Shown in pieces: positions 3,399 through 54,363 of a stretch of DNA of 64,000 nt. The notes beneath the pieces are model-generated. The model searched no databases. It was not told the DNA's origin and saw only the letters and a program-made list of their open reading frames with translations. This DNA is from a virus. The stretch spans positions 64,001 to 128,000 of IMG/VR virus record IMGVR_UViG_3300025012_000031; one strand, given 5' to 3'. Each line of letters opens with the position of its first letter. Position 1 is the first letter of the stretch. The translations under genes were made by a program, and so were the position numbers.

Positions 3399-3590
3399 AT
3401 AAAGTCTTTATTTCGTCATTCTAAGCAGCAGGGACCTCATATCCGTCGGTTCCTGTTTACTTAAAACTTTAACATCTTTACAGCCACACCAAGGACAGTC
3501 TACACCAACTGCGGGTGATTGCCATTCATGGTTGCATTGAATCTCTGTGTTCTTACAAAGTAGAATAAACATCTTTCATTCTTTCTTAAG

Positions 3591-3665
3591 CTCCGCCTAC
3601 AGGACTCGAACCTGTCTCAGTCTCGGTTAACAGCCGAGTGTCGTCGCCCGGACGACTCAAGCGGA
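3591..3665 (-). tRNA. tRNA-Asn(GTT), 5' end overlapped by endonuclease stop codon
   Basis: CTCGG-CT GTT AA-CCGAG; T-arm ACAGG TTCGAGT CCTGT. Confidence 0.9.
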
Positions 3666-4274
3666 ATGTATAAATGATATAGCCTTTGAAATTTCACCTT
3701 TGGTATTGCTCATCATATCTTTCCACTTAATACGATGAACGACCCAACCATGTTCATTTAAAAGTCTATCCTTTCTTATATCTCTTTCTTTAACATCTGT
3801 AAATCTTTCGTGTTGGTCTCCGTCGATTTCAATCGCCTTCTTTAAATGTGGCCAAGCAAAATCTATTGAGTAAATACCAACACAATGTTCTCTGTTGAAA
3901 TTTTTATCATCGAACTCATTTTCAATTACTCTCATGAAAAATTGTTCGGGCCAAGAAGGTTCATTATTCCATCTTGATTTACCGATGTTCCAGGCCTTTC
4001 CTGAAGAATGAGCCAGTTTCATTGATTCGCTAATTTTATTCTTTGTCTTAACGCTAAGAATCCTGCCTGTTCCTGCTATGCCTAACTTCCTACGAGTGTC
4101 TTCAGTAACAATAAACCGAAGACCATTATCTTTAGCCTTCATGAACTGATTAGTACCCTTCTTACCAGTCATACCGTTTTTGTAACGACGATTTGGATTA
4201 ACAGGACAACACCGCTCATGATTACGATGACTATTTTCGTTTTTACATTCCTTGGCACAGAATTGACAATACAC
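3657..4274 (-). mobile_element. Free-standing homing-type endonuclease, EDxHD/Vsr-like (DUF559) with Zn ribbon and NUMOD3-like repeats
   Basis: CxxC...HxxxC; IDFAW...AIEIDGDQH...D..L...GW.V.RI; TATAAATA late promoter at 4305-4312. Confidence 0.8.
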
Positions 4275-4322
4275 GATAAAGAACCTTTCTTGGTGTCTTT
4301 ATCGTATTTATAAATTCTATTT

Positions 4323-4355
4323 AAGTCAGCTGCTCTACCAATGAGCCACCTGGGA
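4323..4355 (-). pseudogene. 5' half of a tRNA (Asn-like), truncated at the anticodon loop
   Basis: TCCCAGG TG GCTC ATTGGTA GAGC A GCTGA CT, followed directly by the endonuclease promoter. Confidence 0.75.
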
Positions 4356-4571
4356 ATGTAATTTTGAAAAGGTAGATTGGTACCTTTCCTTTTTCAATAG
4401 TTCATACCCAACCGTACTAGACCAAATCATTTATCAGTCAGAAATCTCGAGGTCATTGCTTCAACGGCTCAAGGCCTCCACTACTCGGCATCACAGAATC
4501 AAAATCGTCGCATATAAAATAGTGAGCATATTTTATCGCCTAGAGCAGAAGCTCCGATTAATGTATTTGTT

Positions 4572-6928: not shown

Positions 6929-7082
6929 ATGTTTAATTTTCACATAACGAACGTCTGGTTTAGTCTGTTTACATTTATCACAAGTTAATGTTCCGTCCCA
7001 ATTATCATAAAGGGACATTTCTTTAAAGGTTCCACCACAAGAACATTTCTCGTTTAATTTTACATTCATTCGTTTTTCTCCT

Positions 7083-7125
7083 TGGTAGCCACAGAGGGAT
7101 TCGAACCCATCACTGTCTGGCTTCT
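7083..7125 (-). pseudogene. 3' half of a displaced tRNA-Leu
   Basis: AGAA GCCAG ACAGT GATGGG TTCGAAT CCCTC TGTGGCT ACCA; acceptor strand pairs with the 5' remnant at 7755-7779. Confidence 0.8.
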
Positions 7126-7131
7126 TATGAG

Positions 7132-7206
7132 TGCGCCACCCGGGGGTCGAACCCGGAAGCAGCTGATTCTAAGTCAGCTAGGTATGCCAATTCCCTTCAG
7201 CGGCGC
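7132..7206 (-). tRNA. tRNA-Leu(TAG), overlapped by 3' end of HNH ORF
   Basis: GCTGA-CT TAG AA-TCAGC; acceptor GCGCCGC/GTGGCGC. Confidence 0.9.
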
Positions 7207-7698
7207 ATTTTTCTTTCTTCTAAACGTTGGTGTCTGTGAATGACAATTCGGACACAATATCCTCAAATTAAGTTTAGAATTGTCTTTGTTATTACCGTTT
7301 ATGTGATCTAATTCAAAAGATATCGGTTTTCCGTTCCAATCGCTAATACCACACCAAAGACAAGAATTATTCTGTTCTTCAAGAATAATTCGTCTTTTTA
7401 TTGCTTCTGAAAAATCTTCAAATTTACCAAAATTAATTTTTCGTTGTAAATTTTCTGATTTTTTATTTTTTGCTTTTTTACGATCTTCTATGGTAAAAAT
7501 TTTCCGCCTTTTATCAAAGCCTTTCTTAAAAGGACAACCACCGGAAGCAGATTGACGGCCCTTCAATTTTTCGCTGACGCGTTGATTAATTTCTTCTCTT
7601 TTGTTTTTAGTAGAAAATCCACGGGCACATATTGACGAACAGAATCTACCAGACCCATAAAGACCATCATGATCCTTATTACAGTTTTCACAAATCAT
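7174..7698 (-). mobile_element. Free-standing HNH homing endonuclease
   Basis: C..C...ELDHINGN..DN...NLR.LCPNCHSQT; TATAAATA at 7733-7740. Confidence 0.85.
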
Positions 7699-7754
7699 TT
7701 TTGAACTCCCAGAATATATTTTTATTTTATTTTATTTATATTCTGTGGGTTCAA

Positions 7755-7779
7755 TCTGCCGTAGTTGGGCTATGTGGCC
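7755..7779 (-). pseudogene. 5' part (acceptor strand and D-arm) of displaced tRNA-Leu
   Basis: GGCCACA TAGCCCAACTACGGCAGA, nearly identical to the D-arm of tRNA-Leu(TAA) at 8127-8203. Confidence 0.8.
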
Positions 7780-8126
7780 ATACTTTTACTATGTGATGCT
7801 ACAATTAGAGACTTCCCAATTGCAAAACGGATTCTCAATACAACGTCGAACCTTCTTCATGAGAATTCCAACCTTATCAACAGCATCTCCAAATCGAACG
7901 ATTGTGTCAGGACGATATAGTTGTCCGTTAACGAATAACGGAATCTTTTCAAATTCATCATTCGTCATTTCATCAAATGACGGTTCAATTTGAATGTGTT
8001 CGTTCTTTATCTCGGAAATGATTTCGCCTTCTGTTGCAATATGCTCAAAGTATCTGGCATTTGCTCTGTAGTAAAATCTTTCAAGTGATGTCATTTAATT
8101 TCACTCCATTTATAATTGTTTGTGAG

Positions 8127-22247: not shown

Positions 22248-22320
22248 TGGTGCGGTGGACAGGAGTCGAACCTGCATCTTCCGCTCTTATGCGGCTGATC
22301 TACCAATTTATCTACACCGC
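22248..22320 (-). ncRNA. tRNA-like RNA with 6-nt anticodon loop
   Basis: GCCGC-ATAAGA-GCGGA; canonical T-arm; ACCA. Confidence 0.65.
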
Positions 22321-39042: not shown

Positions 39043-40105
39043 TTTTGTATGTCTCGTCAGGCAAACTATTCAGCACGGATTTATTGAATGTAACCAACTT
39101 CTTGTTACACCCATAAAGACATTTAGCCGACATCACCTTATGAACGCTGAATTTCTTTGCTCGGCGAAACACCGATTCTAACGGCCAATCAGCGATGTTA
39201 TCACCGGTGTGAGATGTTCCGTCGCGATACAAGTGCGAGCAGTTAGCAACATCACCGTATTCATTCACGACGAGTTCTGACAACTGAAGATAACACGGAA
39301 CATGGCGATTGTCTTCAAAGCGAACACCAGCCGTGAATGTAGTCTTGTCGTGAGAAGCATTAAACAAAAACTTTGATTCCCCATCTTCGTGTGCCTCGAA
39401 TAGAAAATCAAGTTCTGGCTTGATGTCATTAAACAAATGATCGATGCTTTCTTCTGTGAATACGAATCGCTCGTTCGTTCCTTTGTATGCCGAAAAGAAT
39501 GCTGCATACAGATTCGGTAGCTCGTTATAATACATCTTAAGGAACGGAACAATGTGATCCAGATTCTCCCTGGTCATCGTATATGTAATAGAGGTGATCG
39601 GACGAATATCTTCCGGTAATTTATTGATACGACGAAGATTTGTCAGGACACTATAGAATGATCCTTGTATACCCACCAACGAATCAAAGTAACCGGCATC
39701 ATGAGAATCAAGAGAAACTTTCAATCTCTTAATATAACGGAGTGTTTCCATCGGGATGAATGTGACAAGATTTGTGTTAAGATGAAACTGCACCGAGGGA
39801 AACATCCTTCCCAACCGAGCAATGTCACTATATAGCCAAGGAACACAGGAAGGTTCCCCACCGGTGATATGAAGAATACCCCCACCCATTTCATGATATT
39901 CACGAACGAGTTCACTGAACAGACGCCGATCAAGACTCTTCGGGGAACGCTCTTCATTGCAGTAGCTGCACTTGAGATTACAAGCAGAAGTTATATGTAA
40001 AGATAATCTTCTAAGATTTGGAAGTTCGTTCTTCAATAGACTATCAATTGTCTCCCCTATTCGCATTTCAAATAAATCCCAATATTTCGCTCCCGGATTG
40101 CTCAT
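39026..40105 (-). CDS. Radical SAM protein with C-terminal Cys (SPASM/twitch-like) domain
   Basis: CNLKCSYC, ITGGEP, VSLD, C-terminal C...C...C.YGC. Confidence 0.9.
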   Translation of the reverse strand: MSNPGAKYWDLFEMRIGETIDSLLKNELPNLRRLSLHITSACNLKCSYCNEERSPKSLDRRLFSELVREYHEMGGGILHITGGEPSCVPWLYSDIARLGRMFPSVQFHLNTNLVTFIPMETLRYIKRLKVSLDSHDAGYFDSLVGIQGSFYSVLTNLRRINKLPEDIRPITSITYTMTRENLDHIVPFLKMYYNELPNLYAAFFSAYKGTNERFVFTEESIDHLFNDIKPELDFLFEAHEDGESKFLFNASHDKTTFTAGVRFEDNRHVPCYLQLSELVVNEYGDVANCSHLYRDGTSHTGDNIADWPLESVFRRAKKFSVHKVMSAKCLYGCNKKLVTFNKSVLNSLPDETYKIDACN

Positions 40106-40922
40106 TTTCTAATTCCTTCCTTATTTTATTATTTCGTTTTGTCTCTGCTATTTTTCTTTTTGTTTCTTCTGTATGTTTTCTCCTAGGCCTATTTTTTAAT
40201 TTCATTCTTGTTTCTTCAGAAATTCCTGGCCTATTTTTTGCTGATTCTGATTGTTTTCTTTTTGTTTCTGGTGAAAATGTTTTTCCTATATTACTAATTC
40301 CAATTTTCTTTCGATGTTCCTCCGTTAAACAAATACCCTTTGTAGACTTCCCCACCTTTTTCCCAACTTCCTTAAATTTTTCTTTCATAACATCAGTCAT
40401 GAATCTACCCAACACCCACCCGTTTTTTATTAGATCATCGATTTCTGTTAAATGCGCCGGGCGAGATATGACTCCATTATTCAACCAAGATGTTCCTTTA
40501 TTCCCACCCGGATATGTATTTCTATCTCTATTTTTGTGAGACAGTTTTATTTTTTCTATATGATCATTTTTTAATTTGTCTGTACCATTTTTTTCTCTCG
40601 TTAATCTTTTCCTATTTTTACATTCGTCACTCTTTTGATATGTATTATATTGTTTTTTTAACCATTCATAATTTCTACTATTATATTTTTTGAAATTACT
40701 CATCATCACGGCTGCACAACATAAACTAGAATTTTTATATATCTTTGCTAATAATAAATGACACACGAAATGTTCTCTTAATGTTAAATATGCAAAATTA
40801 TCTTCTATATCTGAACCACCGATACATCGTGGTAAAATATGATGTCTTTCGTATTTTACTTCGGATTTTATTCTATTAACACTATTTGAAATTATCAGCT
40901 CGTAAATTTTTGTGTAATTCAT
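40068..40922 (-). mobile_element. MobE-like HNH homing endonuclease with NUMOD3 repeats, overlapping radical SAM start
   Basis: YERHHILPRC.GG.D...N...LT.REHFVCHLLL; TATAAATA 40946-40953. Confidence 0.9.
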
Positions 40923-40981
40923 ATAATAGGCTCCTGTTTTATTTTTATTTATAAAACAGTTAACCAATTAGTGCATTATGC

Positions 40982-41017
40982 AAAGCTGCACTTAAGATTG
41001 CATTTATTTATGATATG
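40982..41017 (-). pseudogene. Remnant of former radical SAM 5' end
   Basis: Encodes HIINKCNLKCSF, versus HITSACNLKCSY in the current gene. Confidence 0.75.
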
Positions 41018-41378
41018 TCAAATTCATAGAGGCGAATTATATCACACTTTGGGTGTGGTGTCAACAACTAAAAAGGCCACCAGAAGGCAGCCTAAAGTTT
41101 AATAAGGAAATTTTTAATTAAACTTTATTCATAAAATAAACACCCAGACGGCAATCAGAATCTTCCGCTTCAATTTGGCCGAAATCATGACAAGGAAGAT
41201 CTTTGTAGTAAGGTCTGTCATGTAAAGCACAAAGGTATTCTCCGTATGTTGTTGTTTGTTGTTCGTGATTAAACAATAACAAAATACGAAGATGGTGTCA
41301 ATAGATTTTTTCATATAGATGATTTTTATTTTGAAATGAAAAAGGACTTCAAGGAAATTAATCCAAGAAGTCCTTTTT

Positions 41379-49326: not shown

Positions 49327-50037
49327 CTAACCCCGACCGTTGATGATGTGTTTGAATGAATTTTTCGCCTTGATGTAATCAATTAATTCATCTTCATTTG
49401 TGATAGGTGTCTTTGACTCCATGTAACACACCTCTAACAATTTGGAATGATGCGCATCAGAACTACATAACTGAACTTTTCTTTTCATTCCCCAAGGAAT
49501 CATCCGCCATCTCCAAAACGGAATGTGGCTTGGATGGAAATGATCAGTGCCACCGTTGACGCGTTCGAAGCCATCAATGATATCAGCAGCCCCTCTTTTA
49601 ACCCATCGCTTTGGTTGATTTGGGTGCGCCATGATAACGGCACATTTGTATTTGTTGCGAATCATTCTGATATCGTCGACAGTCATTAACCCTGTAATTA
49701 AATCAAAGCCCGTTATTAAACGTGCATCTCGTAAATGAAGAATCTCTTTGATTGCCTCCTCTCCGAAGATAAGACATTCTTCCATGCGACCGACGCTAAT
49801 CTCGATGCCGCAGATGATAGGAATACCAACTACCCGCGACGCCGAGGCCACAACATCAATTTGGTCAATATACTTGTTAAGATTCAGACTACATGTATCT
49901 TTTGAATACACATGATCCGTCAAAACACATGCAGTGAATCCGAGGCGTTTACATTCCATGGCCATCTCTGTGACAGTGTTTTTACCGTCGGAGTAAACAC
50001 TATGGGCGTGCATATTAATGTAATTCATATTCACCAC
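49327..50037 (-). CDS. PHP-family phosphoesterase
   Basis: H.HS.YSDG, TDH, GIE, AHP, SSDAH. Confidence 0.88.
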   Translation of the reverse strand: MVNMNYINMHAHSVYSDGKNTVTEMAMECKRLGFTACVLTDHVYSKDTCSLNLNKYIDQIDVVASASRVVGIPIICGIEISVGRMEECLIFGEEAIKEILHLRDARLITGFDLITGLMTVDDIRMIRNKYKCAVIMAHPNQPKRWVKRGAADIIDGFERVNGGTDHFHPSHIPFWRWRMIPWGMKRKVQLCSSDAHHSKLLEVCYMESKTPITNEDELIDYIKAKNSFKHIINGRG

Positions 50038-50699
50038 CGCTCAAACGGCAAGACCGCCATCGCCGAATTCGTATACTTCATATCATGAGTGATCTCATCA
50101 CCGATCCATAGCGCATGACAAAACGGCGACGGCCTTTCTTTACCAAACTCCATCTCGGCCACAATGAGGCCTCTATTCTCGTCTAGAAACTCGTCGACCT
50201 CGTAATAGAGGTTATTCGTATACGGAATAATATTGCGGACCTTACGGACCCTTCCAGCATCCAGAACCGCCACAATATCATATGCCAGGTCAAGATCGGC
50301 GGGAAAATTAAATTCGTCTCTCTCGTAACCACAACCACCTTTGAAAGTTAGTTCTGCTTTCTTTCCTTCGGTGATGCGAATCCTGATCGCCGTTTCGTTG
50401 GTATCAATCGCCCACACCCTAATGTTAGCCCCGGTCTCACTTATTCTCTTGGGTCGGAGAACACTTATCATCTCCATTGCATCACTGGGTTTAACGACAA
50501 AGCTGAAACTAATCTCGGCACCATCACGTTCGTCGGCGAACGTGATCTCGGCAGCGCCTATTATAAGATTGCCGATCATACCTACTGTTATCTTTGTGTT
50601 TTCGTTGAAGTACCATTGCTCGATGATCTTTGCTTCTTTGATATGATTTCGCCACTCCGGGGAGCAGACGAGAAATTTCTGTTCACGTTCTTTTGCCAT
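50031..50699 (-). CDS. CYTH-family triphosphatase
   Basis: E.E.KFLV, RIR..., R.EF, K.R, EVDEF...GL.VAE.E, W.G.EIT...Y.N. Confidence 0.85.
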   Translation of the reverse strand: MAKEREQKFLVCSPEWRNHIKEAKIIEQWYFNENTKITVGMIGNLIIGAAEITFADERDGAEISFSFVVKPSDAMEMISVLRPKRISETGANIRVWAIDTNETAIRIRITEGKKAELTFKGGCGYERDEFNFPADLDLAYDIVAVLDAGRVRKVRNIIPYTNNLYYEVDEFLDENRGLIVAEMEFGKERPSPFCHALWIGDEITHDMKYTNSAMAVLPFERW

Positions 50700-50721
50700 T
50701 CATTTTTTCTCCAAAAGGTTA

Positions 50722-51912
50722 TTATGCAGATAGTGCCAATTGAAAAGTGTCTCTCAGCATCACCATGTAATTACGATCCTCGCACATGCTTTTCCCGGGG
50801 GAGTCAGAAAGTTTGGCCACGGGTTTTCCATCGCAGTTGACCATCTTCATTACGATAGATAGAGCTTTGCTTGAATCGAAGTCATTGGTCAGATTGGTGC
50901 CGATTCCGAAGACGATGGTTGGAAAGGCCAGACCGAGATGTTGATTATATTCGCCACAGCTAAACATAATCGACGATGCCGTCTCAACATCAAGTCCATC
51001 ACTGAAAATGAATGTCTTTGTGGAGGGATCAACACCAAGTTCAGCAAGACGATTAATCAGTGTCATATACCAAATCATGGTGTTTCCAGAATCATGGCGG
51101 AAGCCGCGGTATCGCTTGGCGTTTTCAACAGAGAGATCGCGACAAAATGCATCAATACCAACGATGTCTGTTAGAGCAACGGCGAGCTTATCGCCATACT
51201 CATCGTACCAAACATTGAGGGCATTCTTCTGAAAGTCGATGAGTTTGGGAGAAAGAGCCTGATATGCCTGGAACCACTCGTGGGCTTGGGTACCTTTACA
51301 GGGAATGCCGAGTTTCCAGGCGAGGTAGACGTTAGAGGTGCCACCAAAATTTTTCAGATTGTCTTTGAGATACGAAACGACCTCGTACTGCCAACGACGT
51401 GAGCGGCGACGGCGGGTTCCCATCTCAATGATCGGCATACCAACCTCATTAGCATCGTTGATCTTTTCACGGAGGTTAAACATTGCACTGGTGTAATCGG
51501 GGTGGGGGTCCTCATTGCGGAAGTAAACCTCGTTAACGATGGCAAGAACCGGGACCTCAAAGAGGATCGTATTGACCCAATGACCTCGGATGCGGATAAC
51601 GATGTCATTCCAATCCCAGGAGATGAAAACCGTCTTCGGATCAAGCTGGAAGTCTTTGAGATAGTCAAGAAAGTCTTCAGCGAAGATATCCAAAGATCGA
51701 AGGTACTCAATTTCTTCGGACTTGAATTTCAATGCACAATACCATCTGATCTGATTCTCGATCAGCTCGATATATTTCGTCAGATTTACTCCTTCCGACC
51801 GGCACTTAAATGCATAATCAACAATCGGATTTTCTGTCTGATGAAATGCTGCTTGCATCTGTGTGAGTTTGTATAAGTCATTATCTAACAACGAAGGTTC
51901 TAACATAAACAT
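50722..51912 (-). CDS. pncB: Nicotinate phosphoribosyltransferase
   Basis: LLDNDLYKL, EMGTRRR, GTSNV, GTQAHEW, RHDSG, FSDGL, FGIGT, KLSD. Confidence 0.95.
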   Translation of the reverse strand: MFMLEPSLLDNDLYKLTQMQAAFHQTENPIVDYAFKCRSEGVNLTKYIELIENQIRWYCALKFKSEEIEYLRSLDIFAEDFLDYLKDFQLDPKTVFISWDWNDIVIRIRGHWVNTILFEVPVLAIVNEVYFRNEDPHPDYTSAMFNLREKINDANEVGMPIIEMGTRRRRSRRWQYEVVSYLKDNLKNFGGTSNVYLAWKLGIPCKGTQAHEWFQAYQALSPKLIDFQKNALNVWYDEYGDKLAVALTDIVGIDAFCRDLSVENAKRYRGFRHDSGNTMIWYMTLINRLAELGVDPSTKTFIFSDGLDVETASSIMFSCGEYNQHLGLAFPTIVFGIGTNLTNDFDSSKALSIVMKMVNCDGKPVAKLSDSPGKSMCEDRNYMVMLRDTFQLALSA

Positions 51913-52541
51913 TTAATGATTCTCCATCCCTTATGTTTCTTATTGTTTGTTAACGTGCGTTGCATATGGGCACGATGAAGGTTATGTTCTCTACAAAATG
52001 CATTCATTCCAGATGTTGTATTATACAAATTTCCGTCTTGATCTTCAACTAAATAATTCTTTATATTAATTTTTCCGGTTGATGTTGCACTACATTTTTT
52101 TCTTGTTTCATCTGTTGTTATTCTTGCCTTTCTAGCTATCGAAAGATTTGATTTATGTTCCTCTGAAAAGAGGACACCCATCTTCCCTTTACTTATATTT
52201 TCGCGATGTTCTTTAGAAAACTTTCGACCGATTCTTTTCTCGGCCATCTTTCTTTGCATCTCTTCAGTGAATCCCGAAAAGCCGTCGCCGCCAATAGATA
52301 AATTATATCCAACGTCTGCATTCCGAGAATTTAATTTCTCTATCCAAAATATCTCTCTTTGGTTTAATTCTTCAAAAGAAAAACATTCTTCGAGAATTTC
52401 TTTAGAAAAACTTTCTTTACCGTATTTCTTTATTGCATGTGATAACACAATACCAGAACCAAGATAATCTTTTCTCTTTGATGATTGTTTCCCAACATAA
52501 ATTTTCCCATTGATATTATTCGTCGTCTTATAAATGAACAT
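51900..52541 (-). mobile_element. Seg-like GIY-YIG homing endonuclease overlapping pncB start
   Basis: FIYKTTN.INGKIYVG...YLGSG; GYN...GG.G; NUMOD3; TATAAATA 52567-52574. Confidence 0.92.
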
Positions 52542-52584
52542 ACAAACCGCCTTTCTGGTTTGTATGTATTTATAAAAGTCTTTA

Positions 52585-52638
52585 TCAAATTAAGAGTTTA
52601 TATAAGTCATTGTCGAGAAGACTGTGTTCAAGTATCAT
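52585..52638 (-). pseudogene. Orphaned original 5' end of pncB
   Basis: GGAG RBS plus MILEHSLLDNDLYKL|LI*, matching current PncB MLEPSLLDNDLYKL. Confidence 0.9.
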
Positions 52639-53715
52639 TTCTTTCTCCATTTCAAAAGATTATGGGCCTTCCTAAAAACAATATATCAGGAAGGCCCATA
52701 GATGTAAATGGTTAAATTGCGTCGGGGAAAAGTTTATCCCATTCATCGGCGAGCTTGTGCATGGCCTTTTCATCGTTGTCCCAGAAACCGATTTTCTTCG
52801 CCGCGGCATAAAGTCTGTTGCCTTCGGTGAACATTGGTTCTGGTGCAATGACAACTTTACACGGGTCAGAACAACAAGAGCTTCCTTCAAAGAGAAGTTC
52901 GCAATCCGGGAAGTGTACTTTCAATATCTCAATTGCCCGCTGTCTGACATCATCTTCAGTGTCAAACCGCTCTGTCAAATCGCCGACTTTATACGAATCC
53001 CAGTTGTCTTTTTTGTTGAGGGTGTCAACTTCTTCCCGTGACATCGGTTTTGAAACTTCAACTTTAGAGTGCGGGGAATTGCATGTCAGCGATCCGTAAA
53101 AATGTTCGGCACCTATTGATACACCGGCCCAGGAAGTGATTCTTAGATACACGGCTTTCATGATTAAACCTTTGGCCTTTCCTTGACCTCGAGAAGATCA
53201 TATTTATAGTCGTTACCACCACGACGATCAAACTTGATGTCGACGAAGCGGAAACCCTCAAGAGTGTTGAACATGCTGATGTCTTTCGGAGCAACCTTCA
53301 ATTTATCAGGCAAATGATTCTGCACTTCATCACAGAGAGCAAAGTAAGTGGATGATATCTTCCGCAGACCGTCAGATCGCCAACAGGAGTCATGGTTAGA
53401 TGTGTTCTCCCATTCCTCCATCGGCAAGATGTTCCCAAAGAATAGTTTACCTATTGTGTGGCCACACCACACATGGACATTGCCATGGAAGATGAAGTTC
53501 AGATTGGCATATGCCGACTTTGCATCGTAGCCGCTAAGGGTGTTCCCGTCCTCAAGATACCCCCAATAGTTGGCGCGGAGTTCAACAGAGACAAGCAGCG
53601 CGGTTTGGTATTCGCCGTCTCGTCTTGATTTGAAGTTATGATCAATCTCTTTACGAAAAAAATCGACAATCGTTGCAACGGTGTGTTCGGCATCAAGCCC
53701 ACATACGCCCATGAT

Positions 53716-54363
53716 TTAGTTCCTCAGTTCGTCGGATGATGCAATGATCAGAACACCAGCCACCCGCATTTCTTCTAATGCTGTTGCGGCGGTCTCCTCG
53801 GAAACTGCCCGGCAGGCTGCGAGATTTACGATGACCCGGAAACCCGCGGCGACCAATTGGATAGCCGTTGTCTTGACGCAGTAGTCAAGGGCGAGGCCTC
53901 CAACGACGACGGTATCAACGGCGGAATCTTGTAGATATTCGATGACACCGGTTGAGATGTCTTCTCGGAGATCATGGAAGCAGGCGCCGTATGGGTGCAT
54001 GTCTCGTTCAATGCCCTTATAGACAAAGAAATCATACATCGAAACTTTAGGGAGACCGTCAATCAGTTCGAATCCCTCAGTGCCGACGATGCAGTGTGCA
54101 TTCCAGGCAAGATCGATGTCAGGACCAAAGAAACCACGAAGATCAGAAAACTGGGGGAGTCCGGCATTGGCAATCCAGAATGCATTGGGTGGGTGCGCAT
54201 CTTTACTTCCGACCCTGTATGCAGCAAATCGCGCCTGTGCCTCGAGTTCACCGACGATGTTGTGTCCATCGGGTACCGGGAGTTCGTTGGGACAAAGAGG
54301 AGTGAAACCCTTTTGGGCATCAACATCAAAAGTTGCGGTGTTCATCAGGCTGAGTGTTATCAT
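53716..54363 (-). CDS. pncA: Nicotinamidase
   Basis: DVDAQKGF, KDAH, W.AHC..GT.G, KG, GLALDYCVKTTA. Confidence 0.92.
   Translation of the reverse strand: MITLSLMNTATFDVDAQKGFTPLCPNELPVPDGHNIVGELEAQARFAAYRVGSKDAHPPNAFWIANAGLPQFSDLRGFFGPDIDLAWNAHCIVGTEGFELIDGLPKVSMYDFFVYKGIERDMHPYGACFHDLREDISTGVIEYLQDSAVDTVVVGGLALDYCVKTTAIQLVAAGFRVIVNLAACRAVSEETAATALEEMRVAGVLIIASSDELRN

Follow-up and report, generated by a model that had tools for sequence, protein, structure and literature searches.

A GIY-YIG endonuclease gene in a T4-like phage interrupts pncB and supplies a substitute for the displaced 5′ end of the gene

In the genome of an uncultured T4-like phage (IMG/VR virus record IMGVR_UViG_3300025012_000031; 155,098 bp, estimated to be 65% complete), a free-standing GIY-YIG homing endonuclease gene lies within the former reading frame of pncB, the gene for nicotinate phosphoribosyltransferase, between a cut-off original pncB start and an intact pncB whose first codons are physically tied to the endonuclease gene. 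The stretch analyzed here, hereafter the window, comprises 64,000 nucleotides (bases 64001–128000 of the record), and coordinates at the pncB locus are those of the window. All elements of the locus are on the minus strand, in the order upstream gene, inverted repeat and promoter, orphan pncB start, late promoter, hairpin, endonuclease gene and intact pncB. We posit that they form a disrupt-and-replace homing cassette, a reading to which we assign a probability of roughly 0.7. The anatomy of the element, the lack of an intron and the conservation of both architecture and insertion site in seven lineages are matters of direct observation. The assignment to the T4-like phages follows the encoded gp43-type DNA polymerase (phrog_262, 1.2e-238) and gp55-type late sigma factor (phrog_234, 1.2e-42); contigs identical to the pncB region come from groundwater metagenomes.

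The orphan start (52585–52648) carries a GGAG ribosome-binding site (RBS; 52648–52645), an ATG at 52638 and 15 codons for the pncB N-terminus reaching to 52594, and is closed, after two more codons that already lie in the cassette, by a TGA (52587–52585), much as an initial annotation of this stretch had described it. The live gene (50722–51912, 396 aa) begins on the far side of the endonuclease open reading frame (ORF; 51900–52541, 213 aa) and overlaps its last four codons: the endonuclease stop, TAG at 51902–51900, falls inside pncB codons 3–4, and the new pncB RBS, a GGAG at 51922–51925, sits within the endonuclease 3′ end, 9 nt before the pncB ATG. The initial annotation had recognized this overlap but placed the new start at an ATG at 51906; the first ATG, at 51912, has the better-placed GGAG and matches the start in a related lineage, L019. 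Downstream of that ATG pncB is full length, matching NAPRTase_N (1e-32) over profile positions 1–125 of 125 and NAPRTase (4.2e-64). Expression as predicted from the genes as read would stop after 17 codons on the orphan, whereas the live gene would be read from 51912 through the whole of NAPRTase_N.

The layout is that of a terminal replacement, with an endonuclease ORF near a gene end between two diverged copies of the pncB 5′ end. The two starts share 12 of 13 residues and only 26 of 39 bases, which bears out the earlier observation that the peptides are nearly the same while the codons differ. Because the 13 base differences change a single residue, and nearly all are synonymous, both copies must have evolved as working pncB starts, with the orphan displaced recently; drift of one copy as noncoding DNA would mostly have altered residues, so the pattern argues that both were coding for nearly all of their divergence. 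Across the 155-kb genome this pair is the best nearby same-strand peptide repeat, and its flank-to-flank alignment score of 58 exceeds those of all 300 random placements (maximum 52). Four of the five Leu codons in the orphan are the genome-preferred CTT or CTC, and the replacement 5′ end (the first 16 codons, 51865–51912) uses the AT-rich TTA and TTG typical of the endonuclease genes of this genome. The G+C content is 0.29–0.31 in the insert against about 0.45 in its flanks. The body of pncB has a third-position G+C content (GC3) of 0.5–0.67, compared with a genome mean of 0.43. The endonuclease-linked 5′ end had been called synonymously recoded; the differences are indeed nearly all synonymous, but recoding by the element is not what they suggest, and the live 5′ end is probably a naturally diverged pncB allele that arrived with the endonuclease gene. 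The segment is too short for a phylogeny, and the indications of such an origin are indirect: the synonymous character of the differences, the Leu codons and an overlap of endonuclease end and pncB start that L019 shares.

Upstream of the orphan, just past the stop of the preceding gene (ORF 53161–52712), an 11-bp inverted repeat followed by a short T-run (52662–52699) overlaps a sigma-70-like site, TTTACA-17-TATATT, at 52708–52680. This region (52708–52662), identified by reading the sequence for promoter-like and terminator-like elements, is probably the native terminator and promoter region of the old pncB.

GIY-YIG genes often reside in group I introns, and nothing else speaks for the idea that the old 5′ end is spliced to pncB, or that the locus is an intron, a split protein or a chimeric assembly, all of which can practically be discounted. 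A search of Rfam over 50600–53300 at E ≤ 1 returned no intron family and a single chance snoRNA match, in agreement with the initial annotation, which had seen no intron core. A group I or group II intron, which would place a ribozyme core around the ORF, was rejected on that result; the only strong structure at the locus is the 11-bp hairpin at the endonuclease RBS. A split gene that needs both fragments, as in the nrdA/mobE type, was rejected as well, the 15-codon upstream piece being already contained in the downstream gene. Since the downstream pncB is complete from its own ATG, with NAPRTase_N wholly covered, the 15-codon orphan is redundant. Finally, nine contigs, put together independently from several samples with several assemblers, agree over the 2.5-kb region at 100% identity, and therefore the locus is neither a chimera nor an assembly artifact.

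The endonuclease ORF has its own start and stop. Its 213-aa product scores 25.6 bits against the Pfam GIY-YIG family PF01541 (cutoff 22.6) and matches the homing endonuclease family phrog_314 (1.7e-45) over residues 2–211, and alignment to the catalytic domain of I-TevI (1LN0) finds the GIY, YVG, Arg, Glu and Asn (GYN) positions all present. Many relatives carry NUMOD3 (PF07460), for which this protein has no Pfam match; by eye, the C-terminal ~55 residues are similar across the seven lineages. In one variant contig (L014, positions 4019–4055), which otherwise differs at one base, a 23-nt deletion corresponding to window 52208–52230 shifts the frame and leaves a 109-aa endonuclease. This looks like decay of the endonuclease in a population in which the element is fixed, the cassette being present in 10 of 10 contigs that carry the upstream gene.

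The association with pncB extends beyond this phage. We examined six relatives of the endonuclease at 43–57% identity (P0127, P0128, P0129, P0130, P0133 and P0135), encoded on different metagenomic phage-like contigs (L019/L020, L021/L022, L023, L104, L105/L106 and L107), and in all six a NAPRTase (pncB) gene lies directly downstream. With the present phage included, all seven lineages have a pncB 5′ relic no more than 120 nt upstream of the endonuclease ATG, and all seven relics end at the same codons, D-x-D-L/F-Y-K. The motif used for scoring, [DN][LF]YK, occurs nine times in 310,192 six-frame positions of the genome (2.9e-5 per position), so that 0.0035 occurrences are expected per locus. 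The comparison supports the earlier claim that the endonuclease gene sits in the old pncB frame with a linked substitute 5′ end. The relics differ in their state: complete in this phage, with the ATG out of frame in L019, shortened in L021, L023 and L104, and reaching upstream beyond the core in L107 and L019. Decay to such different degrees is what one would expect of displaced gene starts of different ages, more than of a selected peptide. The overlap of the endonuclease end with the pncB ATG is common to this phage and L019, two lineages whose pncB proteins share only 40% identity, from which it follows that the first pncB codons come with the cassette.

Homing sites are characterized by constancy of both the target gene and the point of insertion, and the alignments indicate a Seg-like GIY-YIG family specialized on phage pncB, with insertion after Tyr-Lys of LLDxDLYK at about codon 14. 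The endonuclease is absent from 79 of 80 other pncB loci in IMG/VR, the remaining one being on the contig of L023. Where the pncB start was read, at 13 of the other loci, it was contiguous at all except L031, a 49,284-bp IMG/VR contig without the endonuclease gene. There (L031:2458–2520), an 8-nt insertion separates the Tyr and Lys codons of the motif in the middle of a natural palindrome, with a stop after 13 codons and an ORF resuming at a downstream Met-Met; it may mark a misrepair or an excision at the presumed site of cleavage or insertion.

The same architecture could have been inherited from a single entry into an ancestor, followed by vertical descent with pncB and loss of mobility, the relic now serving as promoter or operator of the endonuclease gene. 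The left and right junctions share their architecture among lineages, the ~12 bases of the relic nearest the junction are kept in all seven, including those in which the remainder has decayed, there is an overlap between the late promoter and a target-like box, and no contig of this phage population lacks the element. The endonuclease and pncB trees are also broadly congruent, with some weakly supported conflicts: both contain a group of L104 and L107 (with L105), and in both this phage groups with L021. Against such a history, a neutral relic of 45 nt as old as the ~45% divergence of pncB should be unrecognizable, and yet in this phage it is complete with RBS and ATG, and its differences from the live copy are almost exclusively synonymous. 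Distances are also shorter for the endonuclease than for pncB, both in identity to this phage (51–57.5% versus 40–47%) and in median terminal branch (0.45 versus 0.70). Congruent trees, moreover, are expected if homing co-converts much of pncB, and they are therefore not decisive between vertical and horizontal transmission. We consider an ancient, immobile insertion unlikely, if still worth reckoning with.

Comparable layouts recur in the same genome, as the initial annotation had proposed. In a flank-duplication screen of ten endonuclease genes of the genome, only the pncB locus and a radical SAM locus at 55 kb exceed the random maximum. The latter lies outside the window (genome 55456–57202, L006:1398–3144, minus strand) and is a 3′ mirror image of the pncB case: a second GIY-YIG gene is followed by a repeat of the tail of a 266-aa radical SAM gene (11 of 15 residues, flank score 66), so that the replacement 3′ end precedes the endonuclease gene and the native 3′ end follows it, with the stop of the old tail still overlapping the ATG of the next gene. 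The closest relative of this second endonuclease (49% identity, L108:145–1880) keeps the arrangement, with the old tail fused in frame to the endonuclease. The second endonuclease itself (P0247) is recorded on a contig of 170,495 bp, compared with the 155,098 bp of the present record, and a fuller genome may therefore exist in public assemblies. The peptide-based screen misses decayed relics and tRNA cases, of which three were seen by eye (window coordinates): at 39950–41030, an HNH gene between a decayed relic of a radical SAM cysteine motif (17 of 19 bases) and the live gene; at ~7040–7830, an HNH gene and a complete tRNA-Leu between the two halves of an older tRNA-Leu; and at ~3560–4400, the 5′ half of a tRNA-Asn, behind which come a promoter, a nuclease ORF and then a complete tRNA-Asn. 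Each of these three cassettes has the late-promoter motif described below. The recurrence claim is thus confirmed for the radical SAM mirror case and rests on inspection for the others.

This recurrence bears on another account, in which an intergenic endonuclease gene was acquired once by one-sided illegitimate recombination and the duplicated pncB start is an accident of repair, without conserved architecture. Illegitimate one-sided joins are documented in T4 (PMC2988022), and nine additional bases at the left junction do look like an untidy join. Such a scar may explain the first origin of the cassette, but not its present distribution: the order of orphan, endonuclease and pncB, with the same end codons, is found in seven lineages; these stand at 43–57% protein identity and so do not represent one recently spread segment; and analogous layouts exist at other genes of this genome. 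We regard a one-off scar as very improbable.

Sequence features that could control the endonuclease lie between the orphan and the endonuclease ORF. A T4-type late promoter motif, TATAAATA, at 52567–52574 is followed by a hairpin of 11 bp with an 8-nt loop (52538–52567, z = −2.9), whose 5′ arm begins at the last base of the promoter; the endonuclease RBS lies in the loop and the AUG in the 3′ arm. The window contains 13 copies of the motif against an expectation of 3.2, and every copy is on the coding (minus) strand; the promoter-plus-hairpin design is found at most other endonuclease cassettes of the genome. For I-TevI, I-TevII, I-TevIII, segB and mobE, early read-through transcripts fold and hide the RBS, whereas late transcripts, which start inside the 5′ arm, are translated (PMC2988022); the late-promoter and hairpin layout of I-TevI, segB and mobE is matched here by sequence features in a phage that encodes a gp55 homologue. 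By this likeness the pncB-linked endonuclease would be made only late in infection, and it could repress itself.

The candidate for such an operator is a target-like box at the left end of the cassette (52566–52586), which contains the late promoter and is identical at 16 of 21 bases to the D-N-D-L-Y-K-L codons of live pncB; the equivalent boxes in L019 and L021 match at 14 of 21 and 16 of 21. In I-TevI, an operator that overlaps the late promoter matches the homing site at 15 of 20 positions (PMC2988022), and the promoter box may, by analogy, be an autorepression operator for the endonuclease. It may also be what is left of a previous round of insertion, given that one or two changes separate the Leu-Tyr-Lys codons from the late-promoter motif.

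These boxes could be taken further, to argue that the endonuclease gene is intergenic, that pncB was never disrupted, and that the orphan is itself a target-site mimic or operator carried by the element, the downstream start being the native one. In three lineages the late promoter does fall in a second, shorter target-like box, and the I-TevI operator provides a precedent (PMC2988022). The orphan, however, extends beyond the core box and includes an RBS, an ATG and pncB residues 2–8, with synonymous-only differences; it lies behind a terminator- and promoter-like region; the relics in L019 and L107 likewise extend upstream of the core; and in two lineages the endonuclease 3′ end overlaps the downstream pncB start and ties that start to the element. 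A mimic without disruption is therefore highly improbable.

In the disrupt-and-replace model that we favor, the cassette would consist, from left to right, of the target-like box with its late promoter, the hairpin that hides the RBS and AUG, the endonuclease ORF and a new pncB start, with the new RBS, the ATG and the first ~15 pncB codons embedded in or just after the 3′ end of the ORF and running into the body of the gene. The native start, with its promoter, RBS, ATG and 15 codons, would have been severed from the gene, remaining as an orphan whose reading frame ends within the cassette, and pncB function would be kept by the codons that the cassette supplies and not by splicing. We propose that the endonuclease cuts endonuclease-less pncB alleles near the insertion site and that repair copies the cassette, with homology provided on the left by the orphan and upstream DNA and on the right by the pncB body; the 5′ allele linked to the endonuclease gene would differ enough to escape cutting. 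The first insertion probably occurred by one-sided homing with an illegitimate left join, an event of a kind documented in T4, where the joins form at microhomology (PMC2988022). The cleavage site, the immunity of the cassette-bearing allele and the present mobility of the element are thus predictions of the model.

Several observations weigh against this model or limit its precision. Of the 21 bases adjoining the junction, only two distinguish the live copy from the orphan, and immunity, if any, must therefore depend on those two or on codons 3–8, where 11 of 18 bases differ. In this phage the conserved left end of the cassette is set off from the Tyr-Lys codons by nine additional bases, and the exact junction is therefore not fixed to the base. 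Base composition is a weak sign of a foreign 5′ end of 15 codons: GC3 is low over the first ~45 codons of pncB, yet it is low at codons 271–301 too. The congruent endonuclease and pncB trees would also suit a long shared descent with no mobility today. A close endonuclease-less relative was not found in the collections searched, and the empty site is seen only in pncB genes that are 40–46% identical: the 2.5-kb region had no megablast match among 50,697 phage records, pncB found nothing above 41% identity in those records by tblastn, a scan of IMG/VR with the single protein returned nothing, and the next best match to pncB in a search of 5.8 billion proteins was 48% identical. Comparison is therefore possible only with distant pncB genes.

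Free-standing homing endonuclease genes are thought to be intergenic except where the host gene is rescued by an intron, an intein, gene splitting or translational bypass. The alternative of carrying a working copy of the cut-off gene end was, to our knowledge, known before only from the 3′ ends of fungal mitochondrial genes. Those hybrid genes, formed by mORF elements in atp6 of Allomyces macrogynus and in atp6, atp9, cox2 and nad3 of Glomus, are the closest parallel to the pncB cassette (PMC3630166). There too, a free-standing endonuclease ORF near a gene end, of the GIY-YIG or LAGLIDADG type, brings in a foreign copy of that end in frame and leaves the native end as an unexpressed duplicate, and the divergence is of the same kind: the two Glomus atp6 copies share 63.5% of bases and 91% of residues (PMC3630166), compared with 67% and 92% for pncB. 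All described fungal cases, however, replace a C-terminus, whereas the pncB cassette replaces an N-terminus and must therefore supply translation start signals, which lie inside the endonuclease 3′ end. The setting also differs, a T4-like phage with predicted phage-type control by late promoter and hairpin instead of an organelle. It is the radical SAM locus, with its replaced 3′ end, that corresponds directly to the fungal form.

Among phage systems, the pncB cassette resembles the intronless homing of T4 SegB, SegF and SegG (PMC2988022; PMC2330249), with a Seg-like GIY-YIG enzyme, no intron, a neighboring gene as presumed target and a linked diverged flank that is co-inherited with the endonuclease gene. 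The T4 seg genes are intergenic and have no duplicated gene end, whereas the pncB cassette lies inside an ORF and the displaced native start remains. In its predicted control it resembles I-TevI, with TATAAATA directly before an RBS/AUG hairpin and a promoter box that matches at 16 of 21 positions, compared with 15 of 20 for I-TevI (PMC2988022), but the pncB box, unlike that of I-TevI, may itself descend from an older pncB relic. Endonuclease genes within coding regions, without intron or intein and with a functional host gene, are also known from mobE in nrdA of Aeh1, mobA with T4 genes 39/60 and the gene 60 bypass, and a seg gene in gene 43 of phage 25 (PMC2988022). Those host genes are rescued by two polypeptides that reassemble or by ribosomal bypass; here one pncB fragment is discarded and a duplicate in the cassette replaces it. 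We found no earlier account of endonucleases associated with pncB, nor of phage endonuclease genes with duplicated gene ends on their flanks, in a literature coverage that is incomplete, so that this absence is no proof of novelty. What appears from these comparisons to be new is the 5′-end form with its start signals, the fixed insertion site in seven diverged lineages, the predicted T4-style late expression and the target-like promoter box.

The surroundings of the locus (50031–54363) form a neighborhood of nicotinamide adenine dinucleotide (NAD) salvage, with an isochorismatase-family gene (53716–54363), which is a probable nicotinamidase, two genes without assigned function, pncB, a phrog_6660 protein and a PHP-domain protein. 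A similar order of isochorismatase, endonuclease and pncB is found in L023, with NAD synthase in addition. Elsewhere in the window, ARAGORN reports 31 tRNA genes at 871–29284, all on the minus strand, with duplicates of Ile-GAT, Lys-TTT, Asp-GTC, Pro-TGG and Glu-TTC and an odd call with a two-base anticodon at 22248–22320.

The pncB cassette may exemplify a wider strategy. Terminal-replacement cassettes, each bringing a stand-in gene end or an entire tRNA, start or stop signals and a target-derived promoter or operator, could constitute a third general route, besides introns and inteins, by which endonuclease genes enter other genes; the pncB cassette, conserved in at least seven lineages, would be an actively homing example, and at least five cassettes of different nuclease families would coexist in one T4-like genome. 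We offer this broader proposal tentatively, at somewhat less than even odds. If it is true, each homing event would swap a foreign allele of a gene end into the recipient, and mosaic genes would arise steadily from these elements. For annotation, the locus implies that short orphan ORFs and halves of tRNA genes beside endonuclease genes are displaced gene ends and not new genes; for phylogeny, that a gene with a replaced end may be foreign in its first or last codons. Within about 800 bp, the pncB cassette unites a defined target with candidates for an immune allele and an operator, and it would provide a system for studying how GIY-YIG endonucleases discriminate between self and target.

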